A stretch of 64,000 nucleotides of DNA, taken from NCBI GenBank assembly GCA_024137785.1, contig JAHRHZ010000002.1, forward strand, positions 20,720,881-20,784,880. Direction: 5' to 3'. The notes under the pieces were generated by a model. The model did not search any database, was not told where the DNA came from, and saw nothing but the letters and a program-made list of their open reading frames with translations. Every line of letters begins with the position of its first letter. Position 1 is the first letter of the stretch. The translations under genes were made by a program, and so were the position numbers. This document shows positions 2,398 to 47,903 of the stretch, one piece after another. This DNA comes from Ginglymostoma cirratum. Taxonomy: Eukaryota.

Positions 2398-2508
2398 CAA
2401 CATCACCATGGCTTACTCTGACGTAAAAGACTTGGTGCTTCGTGACATTGATCGGATCCTCTTCCCTTCCTCGGATTGCCGCCAGTTCAACAAAACTGAA
2501 TCGCTCAG
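2398..2508 (+). CDS. ATF6B: ATF6-beta internal coding exon (luminal domain)
   Basis: tttttag|...ctcag|gt boundaries. Translates [37 protein letters not shown], matching the ATF6B-type LRDLDQLFLSSDCRHFNRTESLR motif rather than ATF6A. Confidence 0.92.
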
Positions 2509-2881
2509 GTATGTTTAAGCTCGTGGGGGCTGGTTGAGGTAGGATTGAGTGGGGTTGTGTGTGTATGGGAGAGTGTTGTGGGGGCTGGGAAAGGAAGGAG
2601 GAGGATGACAGCTGAAATGAGAGATTTTAATCCTATCCCTGAGGTACCACTTAAGTCACTGGAGAATCCCTTTTAACTCTTTCACCATTAGAAGTTGCAC
2701 AGAAGCAAAGGTTTTCCATAACCAACCAATGTCAACCCACGTAGCCTGTTGAGAAAACCAATTTTGGGGTAAAGTGTCTCTGTGTGTCTGTCTGTCTCTT
2801 CAGTGCTGTCTAGGCGATAAATTAAATGGCTGGCTATTATGTTAGAAGTTTTGTTGTCTTCAATGTCTCTCTCCAATTCAG

Positions 2882-2981
2882 ACTTGCCGATGAATTGCGT
2901 GGCTGGGTACACCGACATCAAATTGAAAGGACAAAGTCCAACGAGAAACCAAAGCGTCAAAAGAAATTTAAACAAGGCATG
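2882..2981 (+). CDS. ATF6B: ATF6-beta internal coding exon
   Basis: ttcag|...atg|gtaagt. Encodes [33 protein letters not shown], in phase with the previous exon. Confidence 0.92.
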
Positions 2982-4487
2982 GTAAGTGGAGATTGCCCAA
3001 GTGCTGAAACATGTCTGTATGAGGTGAAAATAAGTGTGACTGATCCTACTATTTACCTGTGTGTACATGTTCCCTCACCAAAGAAGTTGGCAGAGATTAT
3101 TGCTTCACAAAATTAATATACACTCAGCAGTCTCTGCTGGAGACTGGACATGTGGAATCCTTGAGGACTAACAGTTGTTGCCTGATCTCATCCTTGTTTT
3201 AAGACCTGAAGAGTCTCCGCTTTGAGCTGTTCTTCATGCTGATAGATTTGTGCTTCATTTCCCATCTTTACTCTTGAATCTCTCCACTGCTTCACCCTCC
3301 CTCTCTGTAATCTCCTCTAGTTCCACAACCCTTTGCAGTCTAGATGCTCAGCTAATTCTGGTCAGTTGCTTATCATCAGTTTGCTTTCAGTTGCTGTACC
3401 TTTACTTGATGAGACCCGAAATATTCCTCCTTAAACACCTGTACCTTTCTGACCCCTTCAACTTTAACTAAACTTTGCTCATCTAATCCTCATAGATCCT
3501 TGTGTGGTTTGGTCCCAGGTAATGACTGATTATGCTTCTATGCGCATTTTATGTTAAAGGTGCTACTTTAAAATGCAAATAATTCAGGATGTGCCCTTGC
3601 GTCTCGTAGTTTGTGGGATCAGTGTTTTATAAACACGGTCTGCCAAATTGACATTTCCTTGACATTGTTCTTTGTGTGAGGCTGTCACTTTTCTGAGCTC
3701 CATCATAATCCAGAGTACTAACTGATGACTGATAATTGGGACAGTTGAAAGCGGCCAGGATTACTTTACTGGGAACATTTTGAAATCATTAAGCGTGCAC
3801 TGCTGCCTAACACCATAAAGTCTGGCGACTATAATGCGTGCCAATTTTTCTTATTTATTCAAACTGCTGTGCAACATTGTCTGAAGAGAATGAAGATGTC
3901 AATGAAGAAATAATTTGCAAATGTTGATCATCCTATTTCATTCTCTGGGTAACCAAGCGCCCTTTAGTCAATTAATTACCTTGAATGAAATTGGTGTCGT
4001 TGTTAATGATTGTCAGCTAGTTAATTTGTATGGTTTGATTTTAGAGGAATGTTTGTCAAGTGTCCAGGAGGATGTCAGATAATGTTTTAGCGTGTTTTAA
4101 GCGTATGTTACAAAGTATATTTTTAGATGTGTATCAAATATGTTCAGTAATTTCACACGTGTAGGTAGGTGGGTCCTCTGTTTAATACCTCACCTGCAAG
4201 TTGACATCTCCAGCAATGGGGTACTCCTACAGTTTCCTAGTGTGGCACAATGGGTCAACCTAGATTATGCTCTCAGAACTCAAGAGACATTTGAACCCAT
4301 GAGAGCTTCCTGACCCTCATGCAGAAGTACCCCTGCAACCTGATGCTTGAACAGGATTCATTAATTTGTTCCCCTCCATCAAAGACAAGAGGGGTGCTGC
4401 TTTTGAATCCTTCTGTGTTTGTAGAATGGGCAAAGGGGAATGTGGTCAGAGGTTATTTGTTAATTGTTGTCAGTGTCTGTCTTTCAG

Positions 4488-4555
4488 AGGGCACAGCAGA
4501 GGAAGATCAATCTGTCCCGGTTTATTTCAGTTCATTCTGCGGAGGCTTCCACCAG
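4488..4555 (+). CDS. ATF6B: ATF6-beta short internal coding exon
   Basis: ctttcag|...accag|gt. Encodes RAQQRKINLSRFISVHSAEAST(R). Phase 0 in, phase 2 out, exactly bridging the flanking exons. Sequence is poorly conserved, so support is mainly phase and splice sites. Confidence 0.72.
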
Positions 4556-6031: not shown

Positions 6032-6143
6032 GTTGACCTCCAGTCAGCTACAGGTTTACCAGAGCCCCGAGCAGAGTTACTATGACTTCATGGATGCTAT
6101 CGATAGAAGGGAAGACACTTTCTATGTGGTTTCATTCCGAAGG
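6032..6143 (+). CDS. ATF6B: ATF6-beta internal coding exon
   Basis: ggcag|...agg|gtaaat. Encodes [37 protein letters not shown]; DAIDRREDT is the beta-type form. Confidence 0.95.
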
Positions 6144-6269
6144 GTAAATATGAGCAGTTTTTGAATGTCGCTGGTTTGTGTGCTAGCGCATGCGCATGTG
6201 TGTGGTGAGTGCTAATGGGCACAAGCATGTGGCAGGATTTAAATCTTAACTTCCTCTACCCTGTTACAG

Positions 6270-6354
6270 GATCACCTGCTGTTACCAGCTATCAGTCACA
6301 ACAAGACCAACAGGCCGAAGATGTCCCTTGTGATGCCAGCAATGGCAGTGAATG
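6270..6354 (+). CDS. ATF6B: ATF6-beta internal coding exon
   Basis: ttacag|...aatg|gtaagc. Encodes [28 protein letters not shown]. Confidence 0.95.
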
Positions 6355-6546
6355 GTAAGCAAGAGTGCCGCCTGCTTAAAGTTGAACTAGACCATCTGAG
6401 AACAGAAACAAACCATTTGAACGAACACTTAATGATTTTGAATGTGTTTCCTCTTGATCTCTGCTCAAAAGGGAAATGACCAACTGAAACATGCTGCAGA
6501 CTAGCCCCTGCTTTCAACTGCTGCAGCTGCAGAAGATGAGAAATGG

Positions 6547-12353: not shown

Positions 12354-13978
12354 GGAAATTACATGGTCATGGTTAAAAGATGAGAGTATGGTGCCAAGGA
12401 CAAGTGGTCTTTCAAAGAGCCAGCACAGGTACAATGGAGTGAATGGACTCCTCCAATGCTCTTGTTTCTATGATTCTGCAGCAGAAATGTGCATGAGGAT
12501 GGAGAGCAACCTCCAGTCAGGAAAGGTCAATCAGTCTGTTCTGCAAGGATTGCCACTGGTCCTTCCCTGTCTAACCTCACAGCATCCGCTGACCCCAGTT
12601 TCTTACTGATAGCCTAAAGATAGGTCCTAACCAAAGGTACAACAGGAGATAATTTCATCCTGCAGGTCTGCACAAATAAAACTCAAACAAAACTGTTAAG
12701 GTCTCCATAACTCGTTTTCTCCTCATAGCCTCCCATGGCATGGTTTTTGAAGAACAGCAAAGGAATCTTCCTGGTATCCTGGATCCAATGAAATTGCTTT
12801 TGACAAAAAGGTGGAGTCATGTTTGTGGGATCTTGCTCTGCCTGACACTCTCTGCTACAATTTCTACGTTACATCACTGACAATACTTCAGTAGAGCCCT
12901 ATGGAGCAACTTGGGGTTGTCGCAGTGACTGTGGGATGTTGAATGTCCACCGAAGAGGTAATGGACATCTTGGTTAAACGCAACAGTTCCCGAACACACC
13001 ACAGCCACACATTACTGTGATTCAGCTCCTTGAGAGCAGTTTATTTGTGGTCCGGCACGAATGCTTCACTCAAAGCCTATGCGGCATCAGATGACCTCAA
13101 CTCAGTGGCTGACATAACTTTTCCCCAACGTAAAAACTGTGTTTTATTACCTCCTGCTCTACACAAATGTCCTGCTCCCTCTAATTTGCTTTCCTTGTAG
13201 TCATGAGCAAGGCTGACCATACCTGTCATAACTTCAGGTCATCTTAGCCAGTGAAATATGATCTGGTATAATGTGGCAACCATTTGATACATAGTAAGCT
13301 CCACCAAACAGGTAAGAGGTTTTTTTTTTGTAAAAGTGCAAAAAAACAGCAGAAGCTGGAAAACTGAGCCAAAACCAGAAGTAATTGGAGAAACTCTGCA
13401 GGTCTCGCTCATTTGTGGAGTGAAAGCAGAGTCTACGTTCACGTCCAGTGACTTTTGCTTTAGATGATGTTGATTGAGGGATAAATATGACGAGGTCACT
13501 GAGGAGACCTGCCCGCGCATCTTTTTTTCTAGAGAACAAATTGAGTCTCATCTGAAAGATGGTATTTCTGACAGTACCGCACTCCTTCAGTTCTGCACTT
13601 GGGCTGCTGGTTTACATTTTGTTTCCCAAAGTCTCTGGTTTGGGATTGAACCCACAACCTTCTGATTCAGAGCCAAGAGTACTTCCTACTGAGCCGCAGC
13701 TGATCAATTAAAGTGGAAAGTTGGAATCCTTTCCATAAAGGAAATCAGCTGAAAATTTTCAAAACTGGGGGTGACACGAGTTTTTGGTAAGAGTATTGAG
13801 GACTGTGGAATCAAAATGGGTAAATAGAGTTGTAATACAGATCATCAGTGGTCTGATTGAAGAGCAGGATAGGGGCCAAGTGCAGTGGTAGTCTAAGATT
13901 CAACATGTAACAAGCAGTATTTTCTTTTTCATGTATTTCTCCAAACCTAATGCATTCTCTGTTTTCTTTTTCCCTCAG

Positions 13979-14244
13979 AGAGTCTGCACAACACCACACG
14001 AGGTTACGAGGTGATGATGCAGATCGATTGTGAGGTGATGGACACCAGAATTATTCAGATCAAGAGCTCGTCAGTGCCCCCTTCTCTCCGGCAGCCTCAG
14101 CACAATGGCACGGGTTCCTACCACCCCCACAGCAACACCAGCAGGGCACCCAGTGCCAGGAGGCTACGGCCTCCACCACTACCCGTCTCTGCACCAAGCA
14201 CCAAGAACCCACTGTACCTCACAACAGAAGACAGTGAAGTGTAG
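13979..14244 (+). CDS. ATF6B: ATF6-beta terminal coding exon
   Basis: Long pyrimidine tract then ctcag|. Encodes [39 protein letters not shown]...[12 protein letters not shown], in phase with exon 6270-6354. Confidence 0.95.
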
Positions 14245-17200
14245 TGCTGGTGTTTCCTAGCTCAGTGCCCTGTTTTACAGTCCCACCCACCAGGAAGCAA
14301 AAAGGATCATTGATTGACTGGAGAAGTTCTTCATTTGTTGTCCTTCCCCGCCTCCTGTTCCCCTCCACAAAGACCTCCTGCAAAGACCTGACAATTTCGC
14401 TTTAAGGTTACAAATGAAACTTGGTACTGGGTGGTGGTGGTGGTGGAGGCATGAGGGAAGATTCTGATTGCTTTTAAGCTTCTGTAAAAGGGACAAGGAC
14501 CAAATTGTGCTCACCACCTTCCTGTCTTGGAAAGCTGTAACACGCTATCTACTGCTTTTAAGGTTCCCAGAGCTGTGGCTCCACACGAGTCTTTGGTGAT
14601 GGTGAAAACCAAGTTCCTAGGAAGTTGTGCAGATTTGCAGTAATGGCTTATAATTCCACTACCATAACTGTGAACTATTTTTTAGGCCTGTTCTCCCCTT
14701 TTCCTTCTTCAGCCTCTGGTGATTCTGGAATATGGCCTCGTACTTCACGTTTTTCTGGAAATGACCACACCAGCAATGAACGTCCCGTCTACTGTGCTGA
14801 CCTATTGCATGCAACTCATGTGTTTATCCTTAATCCTTTTGCACTATGCAAGTTGTTTATTTCCCCCTTTCTTTTCTGAATGTGAAGCTGCATTGCAGTT
14901 ACACAACATGCAGGTGGCCTGTGCCAGCGCAGCTTGCTGTAAATACACTGATGAAACTCAGAGCAGCCCAACAGGCTGGAGCATCACTATAATCAGATTG
15001 GACTTTTGCCCTGTAAACTGTGTATAAAGAAAATATCCCAAAAACTGTTGTGTAATCTTGGTTTGGCTGTCTCGGGGTCCAGATTTACGCTGTCATGATT
15101 TGGCCATAACGATTTTGTCCTTACTGTTCCAATTTAATCCTGTCCAGTTATTTGATGGCGACAAACCATTTCTAATCTCACGCAAGCTGAAATCTAAGTG
15201 ACCACTGTCCATCATCCCTAATCTATTTGCTTTCCAATGAAAATGTTTGCCATATTTTGTTTCTGGCTCCATTACCATATATAGTACAGAATAGGAATTT
15301 CACTGTTAAAGAATGTACATTGGTTTTCTATTATGTTGTCATTCTGTTTACTGATGATCACGTGCGTGCCCTTGTGTCCCATGTTGAGGTTCAGCACAAT
15401 TTGGCATTTGTGGTTTGATTTTTATTTGCCTTCATGTGTTCCAAATCATCAAGCATTAATTTTTGCTGTTGTAAAGCAGGGGCCCTTGCTTCACTTGGGA
15501 GGTGATGTGGGGCTTAATAGCTCGGTCATAATTGAGGTGTGTTGGTATGACTGGGATTTCGTAGTCTCACAAAAAGAGGAAATACGGTTGGAGCCGATCT
15601 AACGTCCAGCCATTTTCTGACTTTTTTTTCTGTTTGTTACAATGCCCTCACCAAGGGCTGTGTCAAACTTGTTTACAGTTATATTTAAGCGAATAGCAAG
15701 TCAGGGATGGCAAGAATATTTTGCATGATTTGCAGCCGCATCAGCCCAAGGTGAAGTGTAAAAATCTATCAACGTGTGACGAAAATCCTGCCCAACCCAT
15801 CATTGACTGTGGATTCGTTGCTGAGCGATGACCCACCATGTGATGGCTCCCCAAGTTGTTAGCTGACCTGTGTCTACATATAAACCTAATGTTGATTTTT
15901 TTTGTACAAAATTATATAATTTATTATTTAACTTGTTTTTTTTGTGTGTGGTATATTTCTGTCTCTCTGTCTCTCAAAGTCTTCAGAGCAGACCAACTTT
16001 TCATTAGACATGAAACTGAAATATGCAAAAGCCTTTTACTACACTCTCCTCCCCTCCACCAGAAATGTAAATGAAGTTTCAAATTGTCTTTATTGATTGA
16101 CTCCTGAGGAGTACTCAAGTAGAATCACACCAGCGAGTCAATATTTGTAATTGTTTTGCGATTGAAGGTGAACATTTTCTTAAATTTTCTGTTTAATTCT
16201 ATGGTTTGGCACCCCAGTGTGTGTATATTGACAGACCTTTCACTGATATTGCATTAATGGCAAAGGGCAGAAGGAATTGAATTTTGATGTGTGCCAGTTT
16301 CAGCAGTGCTTCTGATGGTTCTCCAGAATATTACTGTAGTGAAATGCCTTGAATACTGACCCTTTCGGGTCTGGAGCAGGCAGAGGCCATTGAACACCTC
16401 AGCCTTGTTCCATCGTGCAGCTGGATTCTGGCTGATCTGTACATTATTTAGGAAGGAGGAGTTTATTGCGATTATACAGTACTCATGTAATCTCCGTACC
16501 TCCCAAGGCACTTTACCAAACATGTTCCATTCCCTGTCCTATATAGCTGCCATTGCAATACAGGAAACATGGTAGCTAATTTGCGTCCAGCACACTTTCA
16601 CAAGCAGCAGAACTGAGCAAGGAATTGGTTTCAGTGTTGGCCAGGCCATCAAGGCTCAACCTCCCCTGCTGCACTTCCAGCTGTATCGTGCCATGTGTTT
16701 TGGTTTTGAAAGACTGATAGACTGGCCCATTTTGACGGTGCCCTGCCCACTTAATATTGCACTGAGTGTTCGCCAAGACACTCTGTTCCAGTCTCTGCCT
16801 TAGGACTCGAACACACAGCCTTCTCACTCCAGCAAGAGTGAGTGAATGTTGACCCACTCACCAAGGGCTTGAAACCCTGATCTGTCAGTGTGAATTTTGA
16901 TGTTTGGCTTTTTGAGGGACATTCGGCAGATTTTCATCACACTTTATGGAATAACTGCATCCTGCTTTTATTCCTACCTTTAAGGTGGAGCAGCCTTGAT
17001 TTGGATTAATTTGCATCATGAAAATAATTTCTGAATGCTGTGTCTTCCTTAGTGAATCCTTTTATTTTAAATATGGTGTGCTGCTACCCCCGTTGCTGCT
17101 TTCTAGAGGTCCTAGTGTGAAAAAAAAAGGGCATTCAGCCCTCGGACTGTTCTCCTATTTAGTTAGATTACAGCTGATCTGTGTCTTAACTCCCTACACT

Positions 17201-20200
17201 CTCCTCTTCTATAACCCATAATGGGGCATGCCCAACAAAAAGATATGTCATTTCCTCTGTAAAAATTCAACATTGTTCCCAGCCTTTTGAGGGTGAGTGT
17301 TCCACATTGTGTGAGCAAGTCTTTTCCTCGTTTCGTTCAATTTTAAGGTTATACTTTCCTGTTCTGGAACCGGCGGAACTGGTTTCTGGTTTTCTGTGTT
17401 TTGTTTTGTAAACTCCAACAATCAAATAATGCCTCAATCTTCACTCAAGGGAATACAAGCCTGATCAATGTCCTCCTAGTTTAACTGTCTTAGCCCTAGT
17501 TTTATTCTGGTTAGGTGCACCTTCCCCAAGGTTACTATTTCTGGCCTAAGCGTCTTGCTGGGATTGGATCTGAACAAGCAGAGCTCTCATTGAGGTGAAG
17601 GTCTTTATTCCAACAGTTTTCCATGACGTGATGTTGTAGTCAGATTTTATTTCTACTTGATGTCTTTTCTGTCATCATTCTAGTAGCGTTTTGCCATTTA
17701 AAGCTTAACAAATTTAAATTGGAGAATCCCACCTGGTGCCATGTTGCAAAGTCTGTACAATTTTTGCATTGGTGTAGAGAGTTGTTTACAGCACAGAAGG
17801 GAGCTATTCATTCCCTCGAATACTTGCCAGCTCTCTGATAAATCAGTGCTGCTCCCTCTCTGTCTTCCTAAATGTTTATTTTCCTCATAGAATCTGACTT
17901 CCCTTTTAAATCTTTGATTGCATCTCTTCCATCACTTGTGGGTGTCGAATTCTGAGCTTGAGCTACATTTTGGGAAGCCCTGTTCTAATCCTGCACTGCC
18001 ATCTGATGGGAAAGGTTGTTCGTTGACTAGAGAAGCTGGGATTATTCTCCTTTAATTAGATGACAAGACATTTGGCTATTTTGGGGTCACTAAGAAGAAT
18101 GCCTTGTCCAGGTCTGTGCATCGTTCGTCGATGTATTGCAACCTGGCGTTGACAGAGGATGAGGCAGATACTTCACACCAGAAAGTCTAAAAGGACTAAT
18201 TCGCCAAGCAATGGACATCCTCCATCAACTGGGACATGAAACTGAGAGCCCTGTATCTCAGTTGCACTAGCCCGCTACCAGTAGTCCTATTCTATAATAT
18301 TAAACAAAGTAACATTAATGTATATTAATTCTGAATACAAGTACTAAAATTAAAAAACAAAAACGACAGAGAACATTAAAAATTAAGTCATTAAATTACA
18401 TTAAGATGCCATAGCTTTTTTTTTAAAGTATCCACCCACCACTGATTTTAAAAGCCCTTATGATGGTGCCACACCATATCCTCCAACAGTCTGCTGAATT
18501 CTGGCACTAAAGGATCAGTGAAAGTTATACATGGTGAAAAACTGGACAGAGATTATTGCCTTGTTCAACTGTTACTGAAAATTTGTAAAAGTTCCAGTGT
18601 CAGGGCTACAGTTAAGCATGAGACGTCCTGAGTGAAGGACTTAAGTCTGTGAATCTCAAAGACCCTCATGAGGTTGTTCAGTTTGAACCATTTCCCTCGA
18701 GTGCCCATGACAGATTTGAAATGAGCAGGTTCAGATCTGCCAATCAGTTCTCATGGCCAAGGTGTTAGTCATTTTTTGTTCCAAGCAATTTCCAGTGTCT
18801 TATTATTGTCTTCAAATCATACTGAGACATCATTGACTGTGATGACTTTGTCTTTCTTGAAGATCAAATCCGTTTTCTATAAGCATCTGTCCTGGTATTT
18901 TAGCCTTGGCTCAATGTACATTATCCACCCTTACTTTCCAACTTATTGCTTTAACTTGACGGCAGTCTTGGAATGTGATTCATGTGTTTTTGATGAATAG
19001 GAAAGTCCTTGAGATGTTCTAATTTTCCAGAGTCCTTACATCTGCACCACTCCTTAAGCATGAGCGGTCTGCCTCTTGAAAGTGATCCTGGTAGGATATA
19101 AATTACAATGTAATAGTCAGCCATTGATTAACCTTGATGATTTGATATTGTATAAAGCTTTAATTGAGACCGAATCATTTTTAAAATTATTGATCCTAGA
19201 TCTTTGGCTCTTCAACTCTTAACTATTTAGCCATTTCCCAATCTCAACAACAAAGTGTTGGTCAAAGTAACTATTTCTGATATTTTGGGTCTGGGACCAA
19301 TGTGATTCATGGACTCCTTCATGTCTGCTGTGGGATTACTTTTTCGTTTTTGTCCGAACGTCTCAATCTTCGGGATCCTAAGTTCTTGTACTCCTTTCAC
19401 AATGTCAGAGAACTGCAATGAGGCCTGTATTACAGGCTCTACAGGTGCTTTGAGTACTTGTCATTTCCAAATAATAGCAGCTGGGATTTGTATCTTGAGC
19501 TTGGGCCTACCTAGACCACCGTCCTCTGTCTTGGCATATATCTCGGTCAAATGTGGCATGAAATGGAGAAACTGGTAGCATTGCGGATGATTAAGTCGAG
19601 TTTGTGAAGGGTATTCTGGGATGCTTTTATGAGGATCAAGTGATAATAATACTTACTTTCCTCATATATCCTGAGGAGTTTGATTTTCTGAATTGAACGG
19701 AAAGTAGCCTGTATTTTTCCTCCATATATTTCAATCTTAAGCTGTGTCCTCTTGGCCTGGGAGTGGTTGTGTGTGACTCAGCTCCATTCATCAGAGAGTC
19801 AATGAAGCTTTCCACAAGCCATAAACCAAGCCACCCTTCTTACTTAATAGTTTGTGAGCTTGCGTTAATTGATAGCCCATCTCCTAGTGTTTCGGGTTGC
19901 AAACTGGACAACAAACAATCCTTGTATCTCTCAGATGACTTTTGAGTACTATCCTCCTCATTAAGACCAACCTCTGTGATGTCTTCACCAGTCTCATCAA
20001 GCAGTAGTGGTTGGGCTACCACTTGGGTGTTCTGCAACACTGTTTATCAGAAATTTGCTTGGAAGTTTTGGTATTTAGGATATTGGCAATCTTTTTGTTT
20101 ATGACAGAGTTAAGATGAGAAGTTGTTTCTTTCCATTTTGTAAACTCTCTTTTGTGGCTTTGCATTGACTTTTAAGGTCTCCAAATGTTTTTCATTGCGT

Positions 20201-22551
20201 AGCACTACCTGTCTACAGCCAAAGCGAATCCTTGATGAGAATGTTAGCTCATACATAGAATATGCATAGACCCCAAGTTGGTTTAAGCTGGTCTTATGCC
20301 ACTACATGTGACAGGCTATTGCATGACCTTTTCTACTTTTTTCACATTTGGAGTGCATAATTCAGATGTTATTGATCTGATGTTTCTCAACCCTTTGGAC
20401 ACAGGTGCCTAAGAAAGAAAGTAGAGAGCTGAAGAATGTGCAAAATAACCTTTCAGTGGAGTAAGTGTATCACAACCTCATTTATGGTGGTTCAGTCATA
20501 GGTCCGACCAATGATGACAGGCTGCATGTATATATGCTATAATTTCAGATTTTTTTTTAATTCATTCATGGGATGTGGATGTTGTTGGCTGCACCAGCAT
20601 TTCATACCCAATTGTTCCCCAATTGTTAAGAGTCATCCACATTGCTGTGACTCTAAAGCCTCTTTTGGCCAAACCAGGTAAGAAAGGCAGTTTCATTCCT
20701 TGAAGGGCATTAGTGAACCAGGTGGGTTCTTCCCAACAATTGACAATGGTTTCATAGTCATCATTAGTCTCTTAATGTCAGAATTTTTAAAAATTAAATT
20801 CAAATCCCACCATCTGCCTGGGTCTCCAGAACATTACCTGGGTCTCTGGATTAATACTCTAGCGATAATATCACTGGGCCATCACCTCCTCATTGCCAAT
20901 ACTATTGTCAACCACTTCAGTCGAAGTTGTTGTAACCAAATCTCTGCATCTTCTGTTACCGAAGAATTGTGTGTCAATGCTGGTCGTACACTGTATTGGC
21001 TGGGCTGCCCATGTGTTTTCTTCAATCACAGGCACATCAGTGTCTACCAGAGCACCCAGTCCTTTAGGGAAGGTTGATCACTGTTTAAAATCGCAAAGGA
21101 TTTTGATAGAGTAAGGAAGGTTTCCAATGGCCACTAGAGACAATAAGGTAATTTGCAAAAGAACCAGAGAGAATTGGATGAATACTTGAAGGTCTTGCAA
21201 AAGCAGTCAACAGCAATTTGCGTTTATGTAGCACCTGTTAATATCATAAAAAAACACACCCTCAGCAGCAATATAAAGCAAAATGAAAACTCCATAAGAA
21301 GAAATGGGGCAAACATTTTAAAGCTTCATCAAACAGCTGAAGTGGCACTAACTGGAGAGCTCTTTCAAAGAGCTACACCAGGCATGGTAGGCAAATGACC
21401 TGCATGCTGCAGCATTCTTTGGTGGAGTGAACAAAAATGAGTGGCAGATGGCTGCCTGTTTTCATTTCATCATGCTATGATCAGCATTATTTTGATGTAT
21501 TTTTGACTTTGGTTGCACTGACTCGTTACTCAGTTTTGCTTCGTGTCATTGTAACTCCTACCTTTGCCTGCCCCCATCCCACTTCAAGTCTTCAGGCCCA
21601 GCCTGTTTGTTTAACACCGTTGATTCAATTACAGTCATTGTATCAGTGACATTATACTGCAGATGAGAATGCACTAATGCTGCATCAGGTTTCACTTTTC
21701 AATTTTAGAAGAAAATCATGTGTGTAACTAAGTCTGGAGCTGAGGTATAATGAGCTCTTCTCTAGTTTCCTTCCTTCAATCAGAGATTTTAGGAGGGTCT
21801 ACCATCAAAAGGTGACCCAACTGCAATTGTTTATCCAATTTAAACCCTCTTCCATTGCCCCAATAACAGCATAACTGATGCACTGAGGAACATTGCTATA
21901 GTTGAAGCTGCGTCAAATCAAGTGGTCAAATTTTTAGTGTAAATAAATGATCATTGCTGCAAAATGAGATGTGCTGCCTCACTCATCAGGTCAGAATTGC
22001 AAAACAGCTAAATTTCTCAAGGAAAGGGCATGGTGCATTCACCTTGAGCTAAAGGCGACATTTTGACCAAGCAGAATCCATTTGCAAACCATTGGGCATC
22101 CTGTTCTCAGACAGTATAAACTCCAGTTTCATTCTCCCTTCCCCACCCTTCGAAATTGATGTTCTTGCAATTCTATCCTGGTGAGTACAAGACAGAACAT
22201 TTTGGCACCTAAGTGTTTTTACAGCAATGCTGAAATTGTGTACCACCAACCAAGTCAGTGATACAGTTTGTCTGTCTTTAATATTAGTGTGGACACCCTT
22301 TAGGAATTGTCTTGAGTAACCCGAGCTTGGATTGAGACTGTTTCTGCAGGAACCTCATGAGATGTTAGGATGATGGCTACAACTGTATCTGAAGGCAAGT
22401 GGCTTCTTTAAGTCACAACCTTACGTGGTTGCAGTGGTTACAGTGTTGGACTGTGTGTGACATGTCCTTGTTTCAAGCAATCCTAGTCTTCTGTCTGTTT
22501 GTCATTTTGACTTGAGTCAAGTAGATGCTTGAAATTAAAGTATTCCACCCA

Positions 22552-22553
<2 letters not shown>

Positions 22554-22598
<45 letters not shown>
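22554..22598. repeat. (GT)n microsatellite
   Basis: About 22 perfect GT units. Confidence 0.97.
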
Positions 22599-22600
<2 letters not shown>

Positions 22601-25320: not shown

Positions 25321-28300
25321 GGTGTTCGAAACAAAGCGACCTTTTAATAATCTCATTAGAGTTCACAGTTGGGTGTGCTCTGTGACTGGGACGTCTGCCA
25401 GTGTCAATGTCAATGTTGAGCTCTGTCAGTGTCGCACTGCGTTCGGGTCTGTTTGTTGTTGCACTGTGTGTAAAGGTCAGTCAAAGTTAGTGTGTGTGTG
25501 TGTATGGACGTACCACTGAATGTAGGAGGCGGGTGTCTGTGTGTAAGGGTCTGTGTCACTGTGTAAGAGTCAGTAGGGTCACTGAGCATCCCTTACACTG
25601 TGCGCGTCTCTCTGTAAGAGGTCTTTGTCACTTATGCGAGACTACAGTTATGTCTCACTGTGTGTAAGGATCTTTCTGTGTCAACGTCGTTGTTGCAGGA
25701 GGGATGGGGGAGGGTCTGGTCTGTTCGGCATTGTAGCTACTTTTTTCTTGTACATTCCACTGTGAGAGATTAAAACATTCCAGTCGTTCTGTTGACGGGA
25801 CCAAACCCAGATTTAATGAGTTGGCGATATTGATCAGATTCGCACACTGATGTGGTTCCAATGATGTTCCTGTGATATATTAAGACAGTGTGTAACCTCA
25901 GCCTAATGCTGGAGAGGGTGAACTTATGTGCTCAGGTTGTTATCAGGATAGAGAAGTGTGGTCAGGATGACTTTGTAGCGCTCGTCGTGTCTGATGTTCT
26001 GCCAAGAAGATATTTCTGTTCCTCTTTAGCATTCACCAGCCCAGTCCCAGCAAACATCCTTTTGTCGTGGGGAACAGCTGTCGTGGATTTGGTGTTGAGA
26101 GATTCCAGTCATCTTCACACTAAGCAGCTGTACCGTATAAAAGGGGTTGGCTGGGAAACGATCAGGATTAGGCTTTGGCTGCATTCCGAGTCATGTCTAA
26201 ATCGAGATGACGAACAATATTCTCGGGTTGCAACAGGATCAGTCACATCCACCTGGGGCGTGGTGGAAAACCAAACTGGGACAGTACAACCGGGTGCTGA
26301 TCGGCCCATCACCTTTCTGTTAAATCTTGGAAAGACCTTCCCTAATTGACCCGCCCCTCCCCAAAACAATATCTACCTCTCTCTTTTTGAAACGCTGCTC
26401 GATTCTAGTCTCCCTGCTGTCGGAAAGATGTTGCCAAACGTGAAAGGGTGCGCCAAGGGGAAAGGCTGAATAGGCTGGGACTATTTTCCCTGGAACGTCA
26501 GGCGCTGAGGGGTGGCCTTACAGAAGTTTTAATAAATCGTGAGGAGCATGGGATAGGGTGACTAGCCGAGGCCTTTTTCCTAGGGTAGGGGCGACCAAAA
26601 CTAGACGGCATAGATGAGAGAGGAATGATTTAAAAGGAGCCGAAGGGGCAAGTTTGTCGTGCAGAAGATGGTGTAGGTATGGTATGAACTGCCAGAGGAA
26701 GTGGTGGATGGTTATACAATTACAACATTTAAAAGGTCTCTGGATGGGTATTTGAATAGCAAGGGTTGAGAAAGATATGGGGCAAATGGGACGAGGTTAA
26801 TTTAGGATAGTTGGTCGGCTTTGATGAGTTGGGTTGAACGGCCTGTTTCCTTGATGTACAACCCTATGACTGCATGGCTTTAAATCAAAAAATACTTCTG
26901 TTGCCTCCAACCTTAATTCCCGCTAGGTGCATTCCTTGTGTTTTTTTAAAAGAACCCTAGCCCCCCGTAACCCACTTTTTGCCAATCCGCTTAAATCGCT
27001 ATCTTCTGGTTATCGAACCTTGTGCCAGCGGAAATCTGTTTTCCGCATTCCCCTTCTATTAAAACTGTGATGAAATCGCCCCATAACCTTTTATTCCTCT
27101 AAGGAATACCACGCCAGTCTCTGTAGGCACTCATATCCTCACCCCCCATCGACTTTCTCGGCATGCCCGCTAGATCCTTCCGAAAGTGCTGTGTTGGGGG
27201 TGGGGGTGGGGGTCGCAAATTTACGGGGAGTAGTGTAATATTTCTGAGCTCTGAAGAGGTTTTGCAAGTTGAGGCGCTTTATTTTCGAAATGTGCAGGGA
27301 ATTTTTTTAAAAAAACAAATTTTTAACATGTGAGCTGACAAGACAGAATTTTTCATTCGGCCAAAACCATATTGCCCTGGGGAAGGTGGTGGAGTGTTAA
27401 CGTGTTGTGCTGGTACATTACACTGCTGTAGTTATGGAGGCAGTGCTAAGATTTTCACCCGGCCACATTAAAGGACCAGCGATAAGACTGCAACTGAGGA
27501 TGGTGAATGGCTTGGAAGGGACCATGCAGATAGCGGCGTTCCATGAATCTGCTGCCTATGTACTGGAGGTCGGAGATTTGGAAAACGCTGTGAAAGGAGC
27601 CTCTTTGAGTTGCCGTAGTGCACCTTGGCGATAACACAGGGTGCTACTAGCGTCCGGGGTGGAAGGGGTGATAATCGAGTGGGTTGCTTTACACTTGATG
27701 CTGTCTATCTTCTTGATTGTGTTTCCATTGTGATTTGAGTTTCCATTGTGATTTGTATTACAAGACTAAGAATTTGGATTTAATCTGTTTGTTTCCGTGA
27801 TTCGAGATGTTCTGGTAGTGGGTACACGAATTGAAGGCTAGGATAGAGAAAGAGTAGATGGCCGGAAATACTTTTCTGTCCAAAAATCGCTGCTGCCTGG
27901 AGCCAACTTCCAAGAAACAACTAAAAGGAAGATACTGCAGTTCTTTAAACTTCAGTGTAGGGAAGGTCACTGCGGTGTATCTGAAGTGGGAAGGCTCTAG
28001 AGATCCCAAGATGAGAGAATATCCATGGAAATAAATTATGCTTGACTTCAGTGCAAAATGTATTTTTTTTAAAAAATCCAAATCGGAGAATGAACTGGCA
28101 TTCTGTGGAAAAGTCAAAAATTGCATTTACATAGCGCCTTTCGCAACCTCGATGTCACAGATCATTAGACCGCAGCCGGGGCCATAGTTCAACAGTAATA
28201 TAGGATGCACTTCTGAAGTGTGGCCGCAGCTGTAACAGAAGCACAGCAAGCTCCCGGAGTGGAGCGATAAATATTGACATGGGCAGCGCAGAGAACCTAC

Positions 28301-30103
28301 CTGAACTCCTTCGAAAGACGGAAAAGTGACCCAGTTCCAAATTTCACCTGGCACTTCCGACAGTGCTGCATACTCTCCGAACTACAATGGCAGTGTCAGC
28401 CTGGACGTGCGCTCGAGTCTCTGACGCGGGTCTTGAACTCAGTGACCTGATCGTGCGGTCCCTGAACTTGCTCGACCCGCAGAGGCGAGCTGTGAATATC
28501 AATGAAGCTACGACTACGCTGTATTCGTACAGTATTGAGGCAAGCGGGCTTGACGGCTCGGACTTTCAATCTACATTTCTTGCTGAGCTGATTCCAGCCA
28601 CCCCGGGATGGAGGTCTGTCAAGTTCACAGACACTGCTCTCAGGTTAAGGGAGGACAAAACTGCCACTCCTAATCTTCTCTCTGTTGGTACGACGAAAGG
28701 GCGGGTGGAATGGGTGCTAAAATTCCAAATTGCCCTCCCACTGGTTGTCAAAACAGAAGTTGCATGCACAGCTCTTAAAGGGAGGTCAAGCCACGTGAGA
28801 CTTCCCACAATTGAATACTTCACTTTCTGAGCTCTCTCCTAATGAGAATAGCCTCAAAGGCTGAATGGCCTTTCCTACATTCCTGTCAGAGAATGAACAA
28901 GTTGTCTGCTTGCAGTGATATCGACTGAGGAGTAAGTATTGGCCAACACACTGAGGAACTTTCCCCTGCTCTCCTTTGGGATGGCGTCCCACTGGAGATG
29001 GTAACCAGTGACCTTAGTTTGACATCTCACCTGCAAGAGGGCACTGCTAGGCCCTGTTATAGGAAGGATATTGTCGGGAATGGAGGGTGTGACTTGTAAA
29101 AATAGAAAGACTGGGTCTTTAATCCCTGCACCGTAGGAGGTTGAGGGATGACCTGATTGAGGCTTATTAAATCATGAGGGATCTAGATACGGTGCTTTTA
29201 TGCTTAAATTGGAGAGGTCTTAAGGATAAGGTCTTTTCCCTAGCTTGGGTGATTTCAAAACGAGAGGGCATAAATTTAAAGCGAGAGGAGAAAGCTTTAA
29301 AAAGGACACGAGGAACAACTTGTTCACACATAGTGGTTGTGTGGAAAGAACTTCCAGTCCCATTTTCCAGCCCTGGCTTAGTAAACGCACATCAAAATAC
29401 TTCTCAAACGTCGTGAGTCTGTCTTAATATCCCTGAACAGCTGAGCTGAAAGTATCTACGTGCTGGTTGAGATGAGATGGAGAGGGGGTTCGAGCGGAGG
29501 GGCAAAAAATAACGGTAGAGGCGAGAGTAACCGGTTTCTGAGATGTAAGACTCGCTTGTTGTATATTACTGGTTCAATGGCTACATGCTTTTCCTGGTGG
29601 TGGAAATATTGAATAAAAATTATTTGCACAACGGTGTCTTTACTGAGTCACTGCACAGGTACACACTAAACACGGGTGTTGTGGTTTGTCGTGGTGAGTA
29701 CAAAGCACTACTGCAGTATAGTGGTAGCGTGACCGAATACCAACAAAAAAAAATACAGGAGATTCAGGAGGTCTCCTCATTCTGGGGCCCATCTCTGAGC
29801 TGGCTGGTCAGAGCCCACGTACGGTGCACGTATAAATAAAGGGTGACTCGGTGATGGTTTACTGGCTTCTGTGCAGTTATTTCAGTTTGGTTAAAAAGAA
29901 AGAGATTAAAAAGAAACAAGAAAAGAATAAACAGGAGATTCAGAATGTCTCCTCATTCTGGCTTTGAGCTGGTTGTTCAGAGCCCGTGTCCTGTGCAAAA
30001 GAGGAAAACATAAAACTCTGTGATTCTGGAGCAGGGTCTCGCTCCTCGCTCCCCCCACACACCACCCCACGGGGTGGGACTGGGAATGGGATGGGGGCTG
30101 GTG

Positions 30104-30705
30104 TCAGTAGATAAACATCACATCGTAAGTGACTTGGAATCCATTATCCCAAGCGTAGAGAAGCTTGTCGTTGGGGTTATAGTCTATCTGGGTGAGGTAA
30201 GAGTATTTGCTGTGGATTCTCAGCCCTGGGTCTGACTCGGAGCCGGTGTGGGTGTCGAAGGCATAGCTGACAGTGCCCTCCCTCTGGCCCTGCAGCCCCA
30301 CCGCGTACAGGACGCCGCAGATCAGGAAGTAGTTGCGATAAAAGGCGCGCCGCAGCTGAGTCTTCCAAGTGGTTTCCTTCCTGGCGGTCAGGTCGACGGG
30401 GTCCAGGCGGCTGAGCACCAGCACCTCTTCGGGGAGATAGTCAAAGTCGCTGGAGAAGTAGGCCACCCAGAGGCCACCCTCGTCCACCGTGAAGTCCACC
30501 TCGGAGTAGCCCTTCCAGCCAAAGGTGCCGCCGGAGCCGCTGCCCAGCTCGTCCAGGGCCGTCCAGCTCGCTACCGCCCTCAGCCGCAGGTCATAGCGGA
30601 TCAGGTTCCGCGTGTACGCCTTGTTGTAGTAGAAGGAGCCGTTATAGACGGCGTGCCCGGTCCCCATCCAGCTCGACGGCAGCTTGTACGTGTTACTCCA
30701 GCGGC
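30104..30705 (-). CDS. Olfactomedin-like 2 family protein, terminal exon (most of the OLF beta-propeller)
   Basis: Acceptor ttcctccgcag|. Encodes GRWSNTYKLPSSWMGTGHAVYNGSFYYNKAY...EVDFTVDEGGLW...RKETTWKT...FLICGVLY...YAFDTHT...QIDYNPNDKLLYAWDNGFQVTY, collinear with OLFML2A/2B. GC/CpG-rich. Confidence 0.95.
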
Positions 30706-30803
30706 CTGCGGAGGAAACAAGGGGCACCTGGAGGTCAGAGATAACAAGCATGGGGCTGGATGAACACAGCAGGCCAAGCAGCATCATAGGAGCAGGAAAG
30801 CTT

Positions 30804-30831
30804 GACGTTTCGGGCCTAGACCCTTCATCAG
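30804..30831 (-). ncRNA. Minimal hammerhead ribozyme motif in the last intron of the OLFML2-like gene
   Basis: Reverse complement reads CTGATGAAGGGTCTAGGCCCGAAACGTC, within a PLE-derived element at 30737-30865. Confidence 0.72.
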
Positions 30832-31429
30832 AAACTCCCCCATTTCTGATGAAGGGTCTAGGCGTCCAACATCATTTCTACAGCGCCTTTCAGCACCTCG
30901 AGACTCCCCAAAGCAACTTGCAGCCTGTAAACGTGCTCCTGAACTTCGTGAATATTTTCAATTTGTACGGGCGCCCCCCCCCCCCCCCCAAGTTCCCACA
31001 ACCAGAAAATATGATGTTTTGCTTCACTGTCATGTTTTAGTTGGTCCAGGTGCATCAGAGATAACTCTCATCCACCCTCGTTAAGTAATGACAAAAAGGA
31101 TCATTTTTAGGTCTCGCATGGGCAAGCATACAGGATACTGGAGAGACCTCAGCAGATTTCCCCATCAAGTCTGCACCGACCCTCCAAAGAGCATCCCACT
31201 CCCAACCAGCCCACTCTGGGAGAGGGGTGAGGGTGAGAGGGGTAAGAGTGAGGATGGGGAGGGGGAAGGGCAAGTGTTCAGAATCAGGTCAATACCAGTC
31301 TACAAAACAGGGGACTGTCGAGGCAGGGTCATTAAGTACATTGGAGGCTGTGACAGATTTTCTTGAATCAGTAAGGGAATCATGGGTTATGGGGAAAAGG
31401 CAGGATGTGAGTATCATCAGATCAGCTTG

Positions 31430-33133: not shown

Positions 33134-33319
33134 CCATTTTGAAATGCTCCAGGTTGCGGAACTCAATCAAGGTGGTGCCGAAGAAATAGTTGGCCACGTA
33201 GACCCGGTCCTGATTGATCACAGAGTCCTTCATCCAGACGCCTTCCCCACGCCCAGAGCTGCCGTGTGTTTCCGGGCCCCTGATCATCACGGGGGTTCCA
33301 TCACAGCCGTCTTCTCGAA
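33134..33319 (-). CDS. OLFML2-like coding exon 6 (start of OLF domain)
   Basis: ggtttag|...atgg|gtaagc. Encodes REDGCDGT...HGSSGRGEGVWMKDS...RVYVANYFFGTTLIEFRNLEHFKM, compare OLFML2 GRxEGAWMKD/YVTNYYYGN/EFRNLENFKQG. Confidence 0.92.
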
Positions 33320-34950: not shown

Positions 34951-35020
34951 ATAATTGCTCAGTGTTTGGAAGTATGCTAAGCTTTTGTGAATCTTCTGAA
35001 AGCATCAATCCTGAACTTAC

Positions 35021-35222
35021 TCATGTTTCTGTTCTCGTCTGAAGTTCGTTCCTTTGCTGTCTTAGGAGGGAGTATTGAAGGCTGAGCAATGGATATGTGC
35101 AGCCTGGTCCTGGGCTTTGGATTGGAAGGGGCCTGAGGCCTGAGCTGGCCATTTGTGCTGTTGACCCATGACGTGCTGTTATTCAGGGGCGATGGCTTGC
35201 TTGGGGTCAGCCTGGCCACATT
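35021..35222 (-). CDS. OLFML2-like coding exon 5 (Ser/Pro/Thr-rich linker)
   Basis: ttgttacag|...atga|gtaagt. Open frame NVARLTPSKPSPLNNSTSW...ENRNM; phase 0 in, phase 1 out, fitting neighbours. Confidence 0.8.
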
Positions 35223-36714: not shown

Positions 36715-36897
36715 CTTTGTTCTTTCATCGAGTGGGAGGAGCTGCTGCTTCCGCAGTAGGAAGTTGAGTTTGCTGATCTCCTTCCTGACGTCCCTCATTG
36801 CGATGGAGAAGTTCTGGTAGATGGAACGATGCTGAACCAGCCTCTCGAAAGTCTCTCTGAGGAGGGCGTTGACACTGGGAACATTACGTTCCAGCCT
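36715..36897 (-). CDS. OLFML2-like coding exon 4 (coiled coil)
   Basis: aatcag|...aag|gtaccg. 61 codons RLERNVPSVNALLRETFERLVQHRSIYQNFSIAMRDVRKEISKLNFLLRKQ..., heptad-like. Confidence 0.82.
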
Positions 36898-37428: not shown

Positions 37429-37536
37429 CTTCTCCAGTTTCCTCAGTTGGCTGTTGAGTTTGGCTGAGTAGGAGTTTAGTCTCTTGGTCTCCTCATTGTC
37501 AAAGATCTCCTGGAGGTCACTAGCCAGTGACTGGAT
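37429..37536 (-). CDS. OLFML2-like coding exon 3 (coiled coil)
   Basis: ccctacag|...aag|gtacag. 36 codons IQSLASDLQEIFDNEETKRLNSYSAKLNSQLRKLEK, resembling the OLFML2A LQSMVDLLEG...QMNTLEE segment. Confidence 0.85.
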
Positions 37537-39482: not shown

Positions 39483-39716
39483 AGTTGTCAAATCTGAGAC
39501 TTCTATCTTTGCCCTCGCCTCTCCGCGCTCATTCTTGTCCTCACATGGGTTGACTCCGCAATAACACTTGCACTTTGACCCAAAGTTTGCCATCTCCTGT
39601 GGGTGAAAGCCCGGGGCCCAGGTCTTGCCACCTCTCCACCTTGTCTCCACTGGGGTGGGCATTTTGAAGGCACAGTTGCAGTCAGTTTCTTCCATCCACC
39701 TTGACGCAGCCTTGTT
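39483..39716 (-). CDS. OLFML2-like coding exon 2 (Cys-rich N-terminal region)
   Basis: ctatcag|...act|gtaagt. 78 codons with DCNC...KCKCYC..NPCE, the OLFML2 cysteine signature. Confidence 0.88.
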
Positions 39717-43583: not shown

Positions 43584-46500
43584 CACAACAGGGAGTGAGG
43601 TTGTTAATAAAGAAATGCAGTCGATGGAGCATAATTGTGGACACAAGGATGGTTTGAAGTGTATATACTTCAATGCTAGAATTATCGGAAATGAGGCGGA
43701 TGAACTTAGAGCATGGGTCAGTACTTGGAACTATGATGTTGTGGCCATTTCAGAAACTTGGATAACCCAGGTACAGGAATGATTGTTAGAAGTTCCAGGA
43801 TTTAGATGCTTTAAAAGAAATAAGAAGGTGGTAAAAGAGGTGGGGGAGTGGCATTGCTAGTCAGGGCTAGTATAGCAGCTACTGAAGGCAGTTCGAGAAT
43901 GATTTGTGTACAGAGTCAGTTTGGGTTCAGGTCCAGAACAAGAAAGGAGTAGTCACTTTGTTGGGGTTTTTTTTACAGACCCCGTAATAGTTGCAGAGAA
44001 GTGCAGGAGCGGATTGGGAGGTAGATACCGGAAACGTGCAGAAGTCACCGGGTTGTCGTCATGGGTGACTTCAACTTTCCAAACATTGATTGGAAACTTT
44101 TTAGTTGTAATAGTTTAGATGAAGTGGGTTTTGTCCAGTGCGTTCAGGAAGGATTCCTGACACATGTAGATAGACCACATGAGGAGAGGCCACTTTGGAT
44201 TTGGTGCTTGGCAATGAACAGGGCCAAATGTTAGACCTGTTGGTAGGAGACCCTTTGGTGATAGCGATCATAACTCTGTTACTTTTACAACAGTCATGGA
44301 AAAGGATTGATACATACTGCAGGGTAAGGTTTATAATTGGGGGAAGGGTAATTATAACTCTATTCAGCAAGAACTGGGTAACATAAAATGGGAAAAGATG
44401 CTGTCTGGGAAGAGCACTATAGAAATGTGGGGATTGTTTAAGAAATGCATACTGTGTGTGCTCGATATGTTTGTCCCTAGCAGGCAGGGAAGAAGCGGTC
44501 GAGTGAGGGAGCCTTGATTCTCGAGAGAGGTTGAATGACTAGTTAAGAGGAAGAAGGATGCTTAGGATTTTAGGAAACAAGGATCGGAAAAGGCTCTAGA
44601 GGGATACATGTTAGCCCAGAAAGAGCTGAAGAAAGGGCTTAGGAGAGCTATAAGGGGGCATGAGAAAACCTTGGCAGATAGGATCAAGGAAAACTCCAAG
44701 GCTTTTTACATGTATGTGAGGAATAAGAGAATGACCAGAGAAAGGGTACGGCTGATCAAGGATTGTAAAGGGAATTTCTGCATGGAGCCTAAAGAGATAG
44801 GAGAGGTCCTTAATGAATACTTTTCTTCGGTATTCACAACTGAGAGGGACCTAGTTGTAGAGGAGGACAGTGTGAAACAGGCTAGTAGGCTAGAGGAGGT
44901 GGATGTTCGTAAGGAAGATGTACTAGGAATTTTGAGGAACTTGAAGATAGATAATTCCCCCTGGACTCATTGGATTTATCCAAAGATTCTATGGGAAGTG
45001 AGGGAAGAGATCGCAGGGCCTTTGGCGGTGATATTTTCATCCTCACTGTCTATGGGTATAGTGCCGGGAGATTGGAGAGAGGCAAACGTCATTCCTTTGT
45101 TCAAAAAGGGAATAGGGATAACCATGGAAATTACAGGCCAGTTAGTCTTACTTCAGTGGTGAGCAAAATTTTGGAAAGGGCGCTGAGATATCGGATTTAT
45201 GATCACTTGGATAGGCACAGTTTGATTTGTGATAGCCAGCATGGATTTGTGAGGGGTAGATCATGCCTCACAAGCCTTATTGAATTCTTTGAAGAGGTGA
45301 CTAAACACGTGGATGAAGGTAGAGCAGTGTATGTGGTATGTATGGATTTAAGTAAGGCATTCCCCATGGTAGGCTCATGCAGAAAGTAAGGAGCATGGGA
45401 TAGGGGGAAATGTGGCAGATTGGATTCAGAATTGGCTGACCCTTAGAAGACAAAGGGTGGTAGTGGCCGGAAAATATTCAACATGGTGTTCATTTACAAG
45501 TGGTGCACCACAAGGATCTGTTCTGCGTCCTCTTCTATTTGTGATTTTTGTAAATGATTTGGATGTAGGAGTGGAAGGGTGGATTAGTAAGTTCGTGGAT
45601 GATACGAAGGTGGGTCGAGTTGTGGATAGTGCGGAGGGCTGTCCTAGGTTACAAAGGGACATTGATAGGATGCAGAGCTGGGCTGAGAAGTGAAGATGGA
45701 GTTTAACCCTGAAAAGTGTGAGGTGATTCATTTTGGAAGGACAAATTTGAAAGCAGGATACAGGGTTAACGGAAAGATTCCTGGCAGTGTGGAGGAGCAG
45801 AGGGATCTTGGGGTTCATGTTCACAGTTCCCTGAAAGCTGCCACCTGGGTGGATAGAGTTGTGAAGAAGGTGTACGGTGTGTTAGCTTTCATTAATAGAG
45901 GGATTGAGTTCAAGAGCCGTGAAGTTATGCTCCAGCTATACAAAAGCCTGGTTCGGCCACATCCGGAATATTATGTCCACTTCTGGTTGCCTCGTTACAA
46001 GAAAGATGTGGAAGTGTTGGAAAAGGTGCAGCGGAGAATGACCAGGATGTTGCCTGAAATGGAGGGAAGGTTTTATGAGGAAAGCTTGAGACAGCTAGGG
46101 CTTTTCTCTTTAGAACAACAAAGGATGAGAGGTGACTTGACAGAGGTGTACAAAGTGATCAGAGGTATAGATAGAGTGGACAGCCAGAGACTTTTCCCTA
46201 GGGTGGAGGTAGCTATTATGAGGGGGCATAGTTTTAAAGTGAGTGGAGATAGAGATAGGGGAGACTTCAGAGGTAGATTCTTTACTCAGAGAGTGGTAGG
46301 AGCATGGAACGCATTGCCAGAGAGGGTAGTGGAATTGGCCTCATTAGGGGCATTTAAGCGGCAATTAGATAGGCATATGGATGATAGTATAAGGTAGGAG
46401 TGGAGGTTAGATAGACCTAAGGTTTAGCATAAAAGTTTGGCACAACATCATGGGCCGAAGGGCCTGTACTGTGCTGTACTGTTCTATGTTCTATTCTACA

Positions 46501-47372
46501 CTCCTGATTTCAGAGTTGCCTGAAGAGTGTGTTATTTATATTAACCCAGGACAGACTTCAGTTTAACATCGCACCTGAAAGATAGTACCACTGAGAGTGC
46601 AGCACTGAGAGTTTCTGCATTGGGACTTGAACTCACAACCTTCTGACTCAGAGATGAGAGAGAGATTTGGGTCGCAGTCAATTACAGTCATTTTCCCAAG
46701 AGTAAACTTAACCTCCCGTCTTAGTCATCACTCTGCTACAGCCACAGAAGACACATAGGCAAACAGAGAAAATTGACTCAATCCCCAATCTCTCTGTTCC
46801 CAGTTACGGAATTACTCAATCCCAAAACAAAACCCCAGTGCCCCCCCCCAACCCCCACCGTCTACGAGACTGATGACTGTTTCAACAAGACTGTTGCTGC
46901 AGTCTCTCCTAATGTCACCGATTTCACAACTGGGTTTGAATTAGCAGCACAATTCAGAAAAGGGGATTGTGCAACATCGAAACAGCAGGAGACCATTCAG
47001 CCTCTTGAACCAGTTCTGTAGTTGAGTTAGATGATGGCTGATCCATATTTTCAGTCCATCCTTACACCTTTGTTCTGTATTCTTTAGTAACTGTACCCAA
47101 CAAAGGTATATTGATCCCAGATTTGGAATTTTAATTTGCAATCCACCCCAGTCCTGTTCCCATACGCCTGCCCACGCATTCACTGTCTACACCAACTTTG
47201 CCCCCTCTGCTATCATTCTGACTCTGACAGGGAGAGAGAGATCTGGGTCTCTGCTTCTTTTTGTGTGAAAAAGTGCTTCTAAATAATTGCCCAAAATGAC
47301 TGAAAACAAAACAAAACAAAAATTCTGGACATCACAGTGGGACAGGCAGCATCCATGGAGAAAAAGCAAGCT

Positions 47373-47403
47373 AACATTTCGAGTCTAAATGGCTCTTCAT
47401 CAG
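47373..47403 (-). ncRNA. Hammerhead-like motif, different subfamily
   Basis: Reverse complement reads gct-CTGATGA-A-GAGCCATTTAGACTC-GAAAT-GTT-agc, with stem II GAG/CTC and stem I gct/agc. Confidence 0.55.
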
Positions 47404-47840
47404 AGCCTTGCTCGAAATGTAACGCCTTGGACTGGCCCCCGACCTCTTCCCCACTTCCTTTAGCCTCCCTATTTTAGGACAAAGTGCTCGAAGTGTTGTC
47501 CCAATCGTAATATAGGAAACGCAGGAACCAACTTGTGCATAGCAAGATCCCACAATCAGCAAACGCGCAAGTGTGTGCTGGAGCAAGACCCGAATCCTTA
47601 ATCTACTGACTCGAAGGTGCCAGACTAGCAGACTGATTAGCTTCCATAATTGGCTTCGAAATGATCAAGTTGAACACAGACTGGTTCACAAACAGCAAAG
47701 ATTTAGACTATTCGCGGTTGGCAGTCAACTGCCAGCCTTGCCCACGTTCCAGGGAAAGAAACAGCCCTCAACACTCCGACTCAGCACATCCTCGGCTCAA
47801 GCAACTCCCAACAAAGTGGCAATGAGACCATCCATCTTAC

Positions 47841-47903
47841 CTGAGTTGAGGTGGTCAGGACGGGGTTCAGGAGCAGTGTGAAAACCACAAGCTGAGCCAT
47901 CAT
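47841..47903 (-). CDS. OLFML2-like coding exon 1 (signal peptide)
   Basis: ATG in good Kozak context (acacgATG). Encodes hydrophobic MMAQLVVFTLLLNPVLTTSTQ, then cag|gtaaga phase-0 donor. Spliced CDS totals 1578 nt (525 aa). Confidence 0.78.

Follow-up and report, generated by a model that had tools for sequence, protein, structure and literature searches.

A candidate third OLFML2 paralogue paired tail-to-tail with ATF6B in the MHC region of Ginglymostoma cirratum

We analysed a 64,000-nt stretch of the G. cirratum genome (the window; G000:C2:20720881-20784880, in an assembly of 4.36 Gb) and conclude, with a probability that we put at roughly 0.85, that the OLFML2-type gene within it is a real, expressed and unnamed third OLFML2 paralogue, here called OLFML2C (2C), and likely an ohnologue preserving an ancestral tail-to-tail arrangement of ATF6 and OLFML2. 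The gene belongs to the OLFML2 lineage by descent, as seen from its olfactomedin (OLF) domain, its closeness to OLFML2A and OLFML2B (2A and 2B) and its introns.

An expressed OLFML2-type gene converging on ATF6B

Using a shark relative as the tblastn query, we located seven coding exons of OLFML2C on the minus strand (Table 1), which together form a CDS of 1578 nt encoding 525 aa with no internal stops. All six introns read as GT-AG in the sequence. The 5' exons of ATF6B lie upstream of the window, and the two genes converge tail-to-tail with their stop codons 15.9 kb apart. The sequence-only reading had described beta-type ATF6 exons converging on an intact 525-aa OLFML2-type gene, and the exon map, the open frame and an ATF6 tree bear this out: in the tree, which was midpoint-rooted with no invertebrate outgroup, the window ATF6 groups with beta and a second copy, on contig C100, with alpha, each at 100/100.

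Table 1. Features of the window (positions counted from its first nucleotide)
Feature	Position	Strand	Content and evidence
ATF6B, last six coding exons	2398-2508, 2882-2981, 4488-4555, 6032-6143, 6270-6354, 13979-14244 (incl. stop)	+	tblastn with shark ATF6B; splice sites read
OLFML2C likely 3' UTR, at most ~3.6 kb	26465..30103	-	spliced 4656-nt X2 contig extends to 26465; AATAAA at 26528, minus strand
OLFML2C exon 7, coding part	30104..30705	-	remaining OLF domain, D396/N450/D500, stop; Pfam OLF (PF02191) E 2.5e-58
OLFML2C exon 6	33134..33319	-	start of OLF domain; Pfam OLF E 1.2e-6; junctions in RNA reads
OLFML2C exon 5	35021..35222	-	sole S/T/P-rich linker exon; junctions in RNA reads
OLFML2C exon 4	36715..36897	-	predicted coiled coil; junctions in RNA reads
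OLFML2C exon 3	37429..37536	-	108 nt, agreeing in length and phase with the third exon of the shark's 2A; coiled coil predicted
OLFML2C exon 2	39483..39716	-	cysteine-rich segment, 6/8 photomedin cysteines; junctions in RNA reads
OLFML2C exon 1	47841..47903	-	start codon and likely signal peptide; exon 1 junction in 23 reads; model helix 2-20, low confidence
Butyrophilin-like cluster, first gene, IgV and IgC exons	60512..63006	+	Pfam V-set and C2-set_3

Poly(A) reads of run X17 crossed all six OLFML2C junctions (23, 35, 32, 51, 32 and 90 reads for introns 1-6), confirming the exon joins drawn earlier from the letters. Contigs from run X2 also spanned six of six, and run X1 showed four of six; run X18 gave no OLFML2C junctions, but just seven of its reads mapped. 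The nearest named protein is P0527 of a carpet shark, from which the window protein differs at 30 of 525 positions.

None of the 70 open frames of at least 62 aa between the two stop codons matched Pfam (64 at E<=0.001; among the other six the best E was 0.057), and the long open frames in the OLFML2C 3' UTR and the intergenic DNA likewise gave no Pfam match. An unspliced 6751-nt contig from run X13 (window 13978-20728) begins at the last ATF6B exon and may represent a long ATF6B 3' UTR. Several repeats were observed in and around OLFML2C. Fragments that we take to be LINE-like occupy window 44566-46394 within intron 1, and a high-copy short repeat at 30738-30834 lies 33 nt from the splice acceptor of the last exon. 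A retroelement-like fragment at 49700-50936, presumably of Penelope-type endonuclease likeness, is duplicated around the window's 100-N gap.

Three OLFML2 loci and their chromosomal setting

A genome-wide search for the OLF domain gave 19 matches from 23 candidates. OLFML2-type last exons were found on three contigs, namely C2 (which carries the window), C35 and C100, and no fourth OLFML2 copy was found in the genome. When the 2A cysteine exon was used as a query, it matched C35 and C100 only. We then placed the three genes in an OLF-only tree, built under a mixture model from 43 rows (19 partial or redundant rows of 62 having been dropped), where C35 fell among 2A, C100 among 2B and the window protein in a third clade at 100/100. 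A tree of the N-terminus plus OLF (22 rows, lamprey left out) again recovered the C clade at 100/100 and once more put C35 with 2A and C100 with 2B. The best trees leave the window protein outside the 2A and 2B clades, and the genome has its own 2A (C35) and 2B (C100, facing ATF6 alpha), as the sequence-only reading had expected; the window gene is neither a sole copy nested in 2A or 2B nor the partner of an ATF6 alpha. Since the A, B and C clades each hold cartilaginous and bony members, the duplication is older than the split between sharks and bony vertebrates.

The OLF domain of the window protein is 57% identical to that of its own 2A and 52% (global alignment) to 2B, which are 75% identical to each other, and its best matches beyond its own clade are all 2A or 2B (56-61%, vs ~31% to noelin and myocilin). 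OLFML2C shares intron positions and phases with the family, the length of exon 3 and the intron within the OLF domain matching those of the shark's own 2A and 2B. Two features of the other loci were also noted. The shark's 2A is interrupted by a 5-kb run of N at G000:C35:22036912-22041911 (L085-L086), where exons 4-5 are expected. On contig G000:C277, which looks like the 19p paralogue, an angiopoietin-type domain accompanies two further genes with OLF domains, and no OLFML2 match was found there.

The window lies on an MHC-bearing contig, as had been anticipated. C2 measures 23.9 Mb and carries 25 of the 28 MHC class I matches in the genome, at 0.67-10 Mb, together with a PBX gene at 17.95 Mb, a NOTCH gene at 18.14 Mb, which diverges most among the four NOTCH matches, and, at 21.98 Mb, a fibrinogen domain of tenascin type; judged by position and score, these would be PBX2, NOTCH4 and TNXB. 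A search for MHC class II beta found no match anywhere in the genome and is uninformative. A butyrophilin-like cluster starts 12 kb past the 5' end of OLFML2C and runs beyond the window, V, C and PRY-SPRY exons of about four such genes continuing in L059-L068 (C2:20.78-20.88 Mb). In reedfish, vps52 takes the place of this cluster at that side of the OLFML2-type gene. The marker families of C2 recur on the contigs of its paralogues, with PBX on C35 and NOTCH on C100.

ATF6 exons were found on C2 and C100 only, and the C100 copy faces OLFML2B at a distance of ~27 kb; the 9q-type contig, which carries 2A, gave no ATF6 match. We propose that an ancestral tail-to-tail ATF6-OLFML2 pair was copied along with its chromosome in the early vertebrate genome doublings. 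The 1q-type copy would have kept ATF6 alpha and 2B, the MHC copy ATF6B and 2C, and the 9q-type copy 2A only, after which 2C would have evolved fast and been lost in several lineages. The claim that the window preserves a pre-duplication pair is supported by the C100 pair and the shared markers. In a test of the A/B/C order (22 rows, 11 of 33 dropped), the three arrangements gave AU p values of 0.69, 0.38 and 0.34; A+C scored best, and B+C and A+B were not rejected. Because the trees do not fix the order, they do not fix the doubling that made 2C either.

Alternatively, a segmental duplication of small extent, on the stem lineage of jawed vertebrates, could have copied the pair, which then moved into the MHC; in that case 2C would be an old paralogue and not an ohnologue. 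The unset order of A, B and C, the 9q-type contig that has 2A without an ATF6 match, and the proposal, in the available text of PMC8302630, that the proto-MHC chromosome was put together from several ancestral ones would all suit such an origin. Against it, all three copies sit on contigs with matching PBX, NOTCH and tenascin- or angiopoietin-type markers, and according to the accessible portion of PMC11401434, ATF6a goes with TNR and ATF6b with TNX throughout the jawed vertebrates, and in amphioxus ATF6 lies on the chromosome that carries tenascin. We consider a segmental origin distinctly unlikely.

Besides the window protein, the C clade holds nine proteins from sharks and rays, those of lungfish, axolotl, paddlefish and gar, and a single lamprey row on a long branch (P0348). 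Its stem is long, as are the branches of its bony members (0.7-0.9 changes per column in gar, paddlefish and axolotl; the lungfish branch is short, at 0.24), so long-branch attraction may inflate its support. The lamprey row, with a branch of 2.07 and an odd composition, was treated as unplaced and was excluded from the order test, the alternative-placement AU tests and the N-terminus plus OLF tree. 

We also weighed whether the shark and bony-vertebrate C genes might be fast-evolving duplicates of 2A or 2B that have no relation to each other and were drawn together by long-branch attraction, as the gar, paddlefish and axolotl branch lengths and the lamprey row among them might suggest. Trees with separate C duplications in sharks and in bony fishes were rejected (AU p 8e-7 and 2e-45), the lungfish branch is short, and the gene stands beside ATF6B in sawfish and reedfish too, which leaves this explanation largely refuted and very improbable. 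Placing the whole C clade beside chondrichthyan 2A or 2B, with a zero-length branch, was not rejected (AU p 0.21 and 0.07).

Relatives, loss and naming of 2C

In all nine species for which both sizes are listed, the 2C and ATF6B records come from source sequences of the same size, and the true 2A records of four C-clade species lie on other contigs. In the gene tables that form part of the PMC10751288 supplement, sawfish and reedfish atf6b (+) is directly followed by a LOC (-) named 'olfactomedin-like protein 2A', and reedfish olfml2a is on another chromosome; the reedfish 2C is assigned by its position, not from its protein sequence. An unnamed plus-strand LOC faces ATF6B in lungfish, an adjacency that rests on consecutive accession numbers, and we infer that it encodes P0014, whose accession number is four below that of TNX. 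The size of the axolotl 2C record is that of chromosome 13, given as the MHC chromosome in the text available from PMC12619710.

Intact 2C relatives of 514-527 aa occur throughout sharks and rays. Among the 433 proteins listed, those with a C-type best match all belonged to cartilaginous fishes, lungfish, axolotl, gar and paddlefish, save for three weak ties at ~35% identity. These 433 (the best-ranked matches, at 50% clustering) included no member from teleosts, frogs or amniotes, suggesting that the loss may reach wider than mammals. The earlier proposal of an 'OLFML2C lost in mammals' thus stands as to the third paralogue and is refined as to the extent of the loss. We know of no third OLFML2 copy in human, where ATF6 adjoins OLFML2B. 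The human loci are 9q33.3 for OLFML2A and 1q23.3 for OLFML2B (PMC5100274, in part), and TNX adjoins atf6b in Xenopus and coelacanth according to the available sections of PMC11401434. No chimaera 2C protein appeared among the matches listed; TNX and its neighbours are missing from the elephant shark assembly as well (PMC11401434, same sections).

This history resembles that of the 'elusive genes' of PMC10208646, ohnologues that sharks and early bony fishes retain and amniotes have lost, which are likewise fast-evolving and patchily retained. OLFML2C shares with them a location in a region that PMC8302630, as far as its text was available, assigns to the loss-prone subgenome: the MHC sits on a microchromosome, and microchromosomes are tied to that subgenome. 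Such a setting would fit the fast evolution and patchy loss of 2C. Four supplementary files of PMC10208646 contain none of the strings OLFML, olfactomedin or ATF6B, although identifier-only lists could still include the gene.

We found no paper title or abstract describing a third OLFML2 paralogue, in a search whose scope did not extend to Ensembl trees, subscription journals, figures, large data files and preprint supplements. No matching string was present in the supplements of PMC10208646, PMC13450315 and PMC12619710, the PMC10751288 main text makes no mention of olfactomedin or ATF6, and an Atlas search returned generic OLF clusters only. The gene models themselves are already in RefSeq, mostly as 'olfactomedin-like protein 2A' (one as 2B). 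These names set an annotation trap, since two genes can be mixed up in work on expression or orthology in sharks, lungfish, gar or axolotl. OLFML2C overturns no model, and cryptic ohnologues are already known as a class; with it, the ancestral MHC class III region of jawed vertebrates gains an unnamed gene, and ATF6-OLFML2 provides a two-gene synteny marker joining the 1q and 6p paralogons.

Predicted protein and its divergence

In its layout, OLFML2C resembles OLFML2A (photomedin-1), with a cysteine-rich segment, a coiled coil, an S/T linker and a C-terminal OLF domain, and it may have the signal peptide as well. The two also share the 108-nt exon 3, a phase-1 intron inside the OLF domain and an Asp-Asn-Asp (D-N-D) triad, and the third coiled-coil helix of OLFML2C aligns best with 2A; they differ in contig, and OLFML2C has the shorter linker and fewer cysteines. 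OLFML2B (photomedin-2) is of the same family and likewise tail-to-tail with an ATF6 gene, but that gene is ATF6 alpha on C100, and the 2B linker is far longer. The single short S/T/P linker exon reported from the sequence was upheld, as the OLFML2C linker comprises 71 aa (35% S/T/P) vs 132 aa in a shark 2A and 471 aa in a ray 2B.

A structure model, made from an orthologue 94% identical to the window protein, contained a confident OLF propeller at ~268-525, three long helices at moderate confidence (pLDDT ~50-66 for the helices at 81-185) and a disordered linker. Exon 1 encodes a hydrophobic N-terminus, and the model helix there has a pLDDT under 50. The propeller matched the folds of noelin and myocilin (E ~1e-26, TM 0.86 by target), whose solved propellers share with OLFML2C the fold and the aligned calcium triad; identity to them is ~31%, and the N-terminal parts differ. 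The calcium triad of myocilin is Asp-Asn-Asp in the text available from PMC6719662, and it aligns to the three exon 7 residues of the window protein given in Table 1. D-N-D is kept in seven of eight shark and ray rows and reads N-N-D in lungfish. It is absent from axolotl P0327, paddlefish P0328, gar P0336 and lamprey P0348, which have T-I-T, T-L-S, S-L-S and T-L-S, respectively.

The N-terminus has diverged as well, in line with the earlier description. Chondroitin sulphate-E and heparin are bound by photomedins, whose two CXCXCX9C motifs stand in tandem (PMC5100274, available part). The window protein has six of the eight photomedin cysteines and no exact CXCXCX9C, and the exact motif was absent from all eight shark and ray C proteins checked; lungfish and gar 2C have eight cysteines and one exact motif. 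On account of these cysteine counts and the missing motif, OLFML2C is not classed as a canonical photomedin. The cysteine motif and the calcium triad have thus fared differently among 2C copies, a natural comparison for olfactomedin structure and function. Judged from its architecture, it likely acts as a secreted, photomedin-like olfactomedin, probably an oligomeric matrix protein. We picture a secreted glycoprotein in which the N-terminal cysteines and the coiled coil would hold the oligomer together and the five-bladed propeller, with calcium bound, would be displayed to partners in the matrix or on the cell surface, as in photomedins; its stalk is shorter and its disulphide pattern probably differs. 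That OLFML2C is instead a decaying, non-functional copy is barely credible: the long stem, the lost cysteines, the short linker and an axolotl model of only 300 aa that lacks the N-terminus could be read this way, but the 525-aa frame is open, its mRNA is spliced, the shark and ray relatives are intact and the triad is kept.

A broader scenario, which we offer only tentatively and rate as unlikely, would make 2C a lost MHC class III gene remodelled in two ways, with the N-terminal disulphides rewired in sharks and rays and the propellers calcium-free in gar, paddlefish and axolotl; it would have gone from frogs and amniotes when a rearrangement set TNXB at the 3' end of ATF6B. Were the lamprey row a true orthologue, 2C would date to the first doubling and would fix the pairing of the four MHC paralogons.
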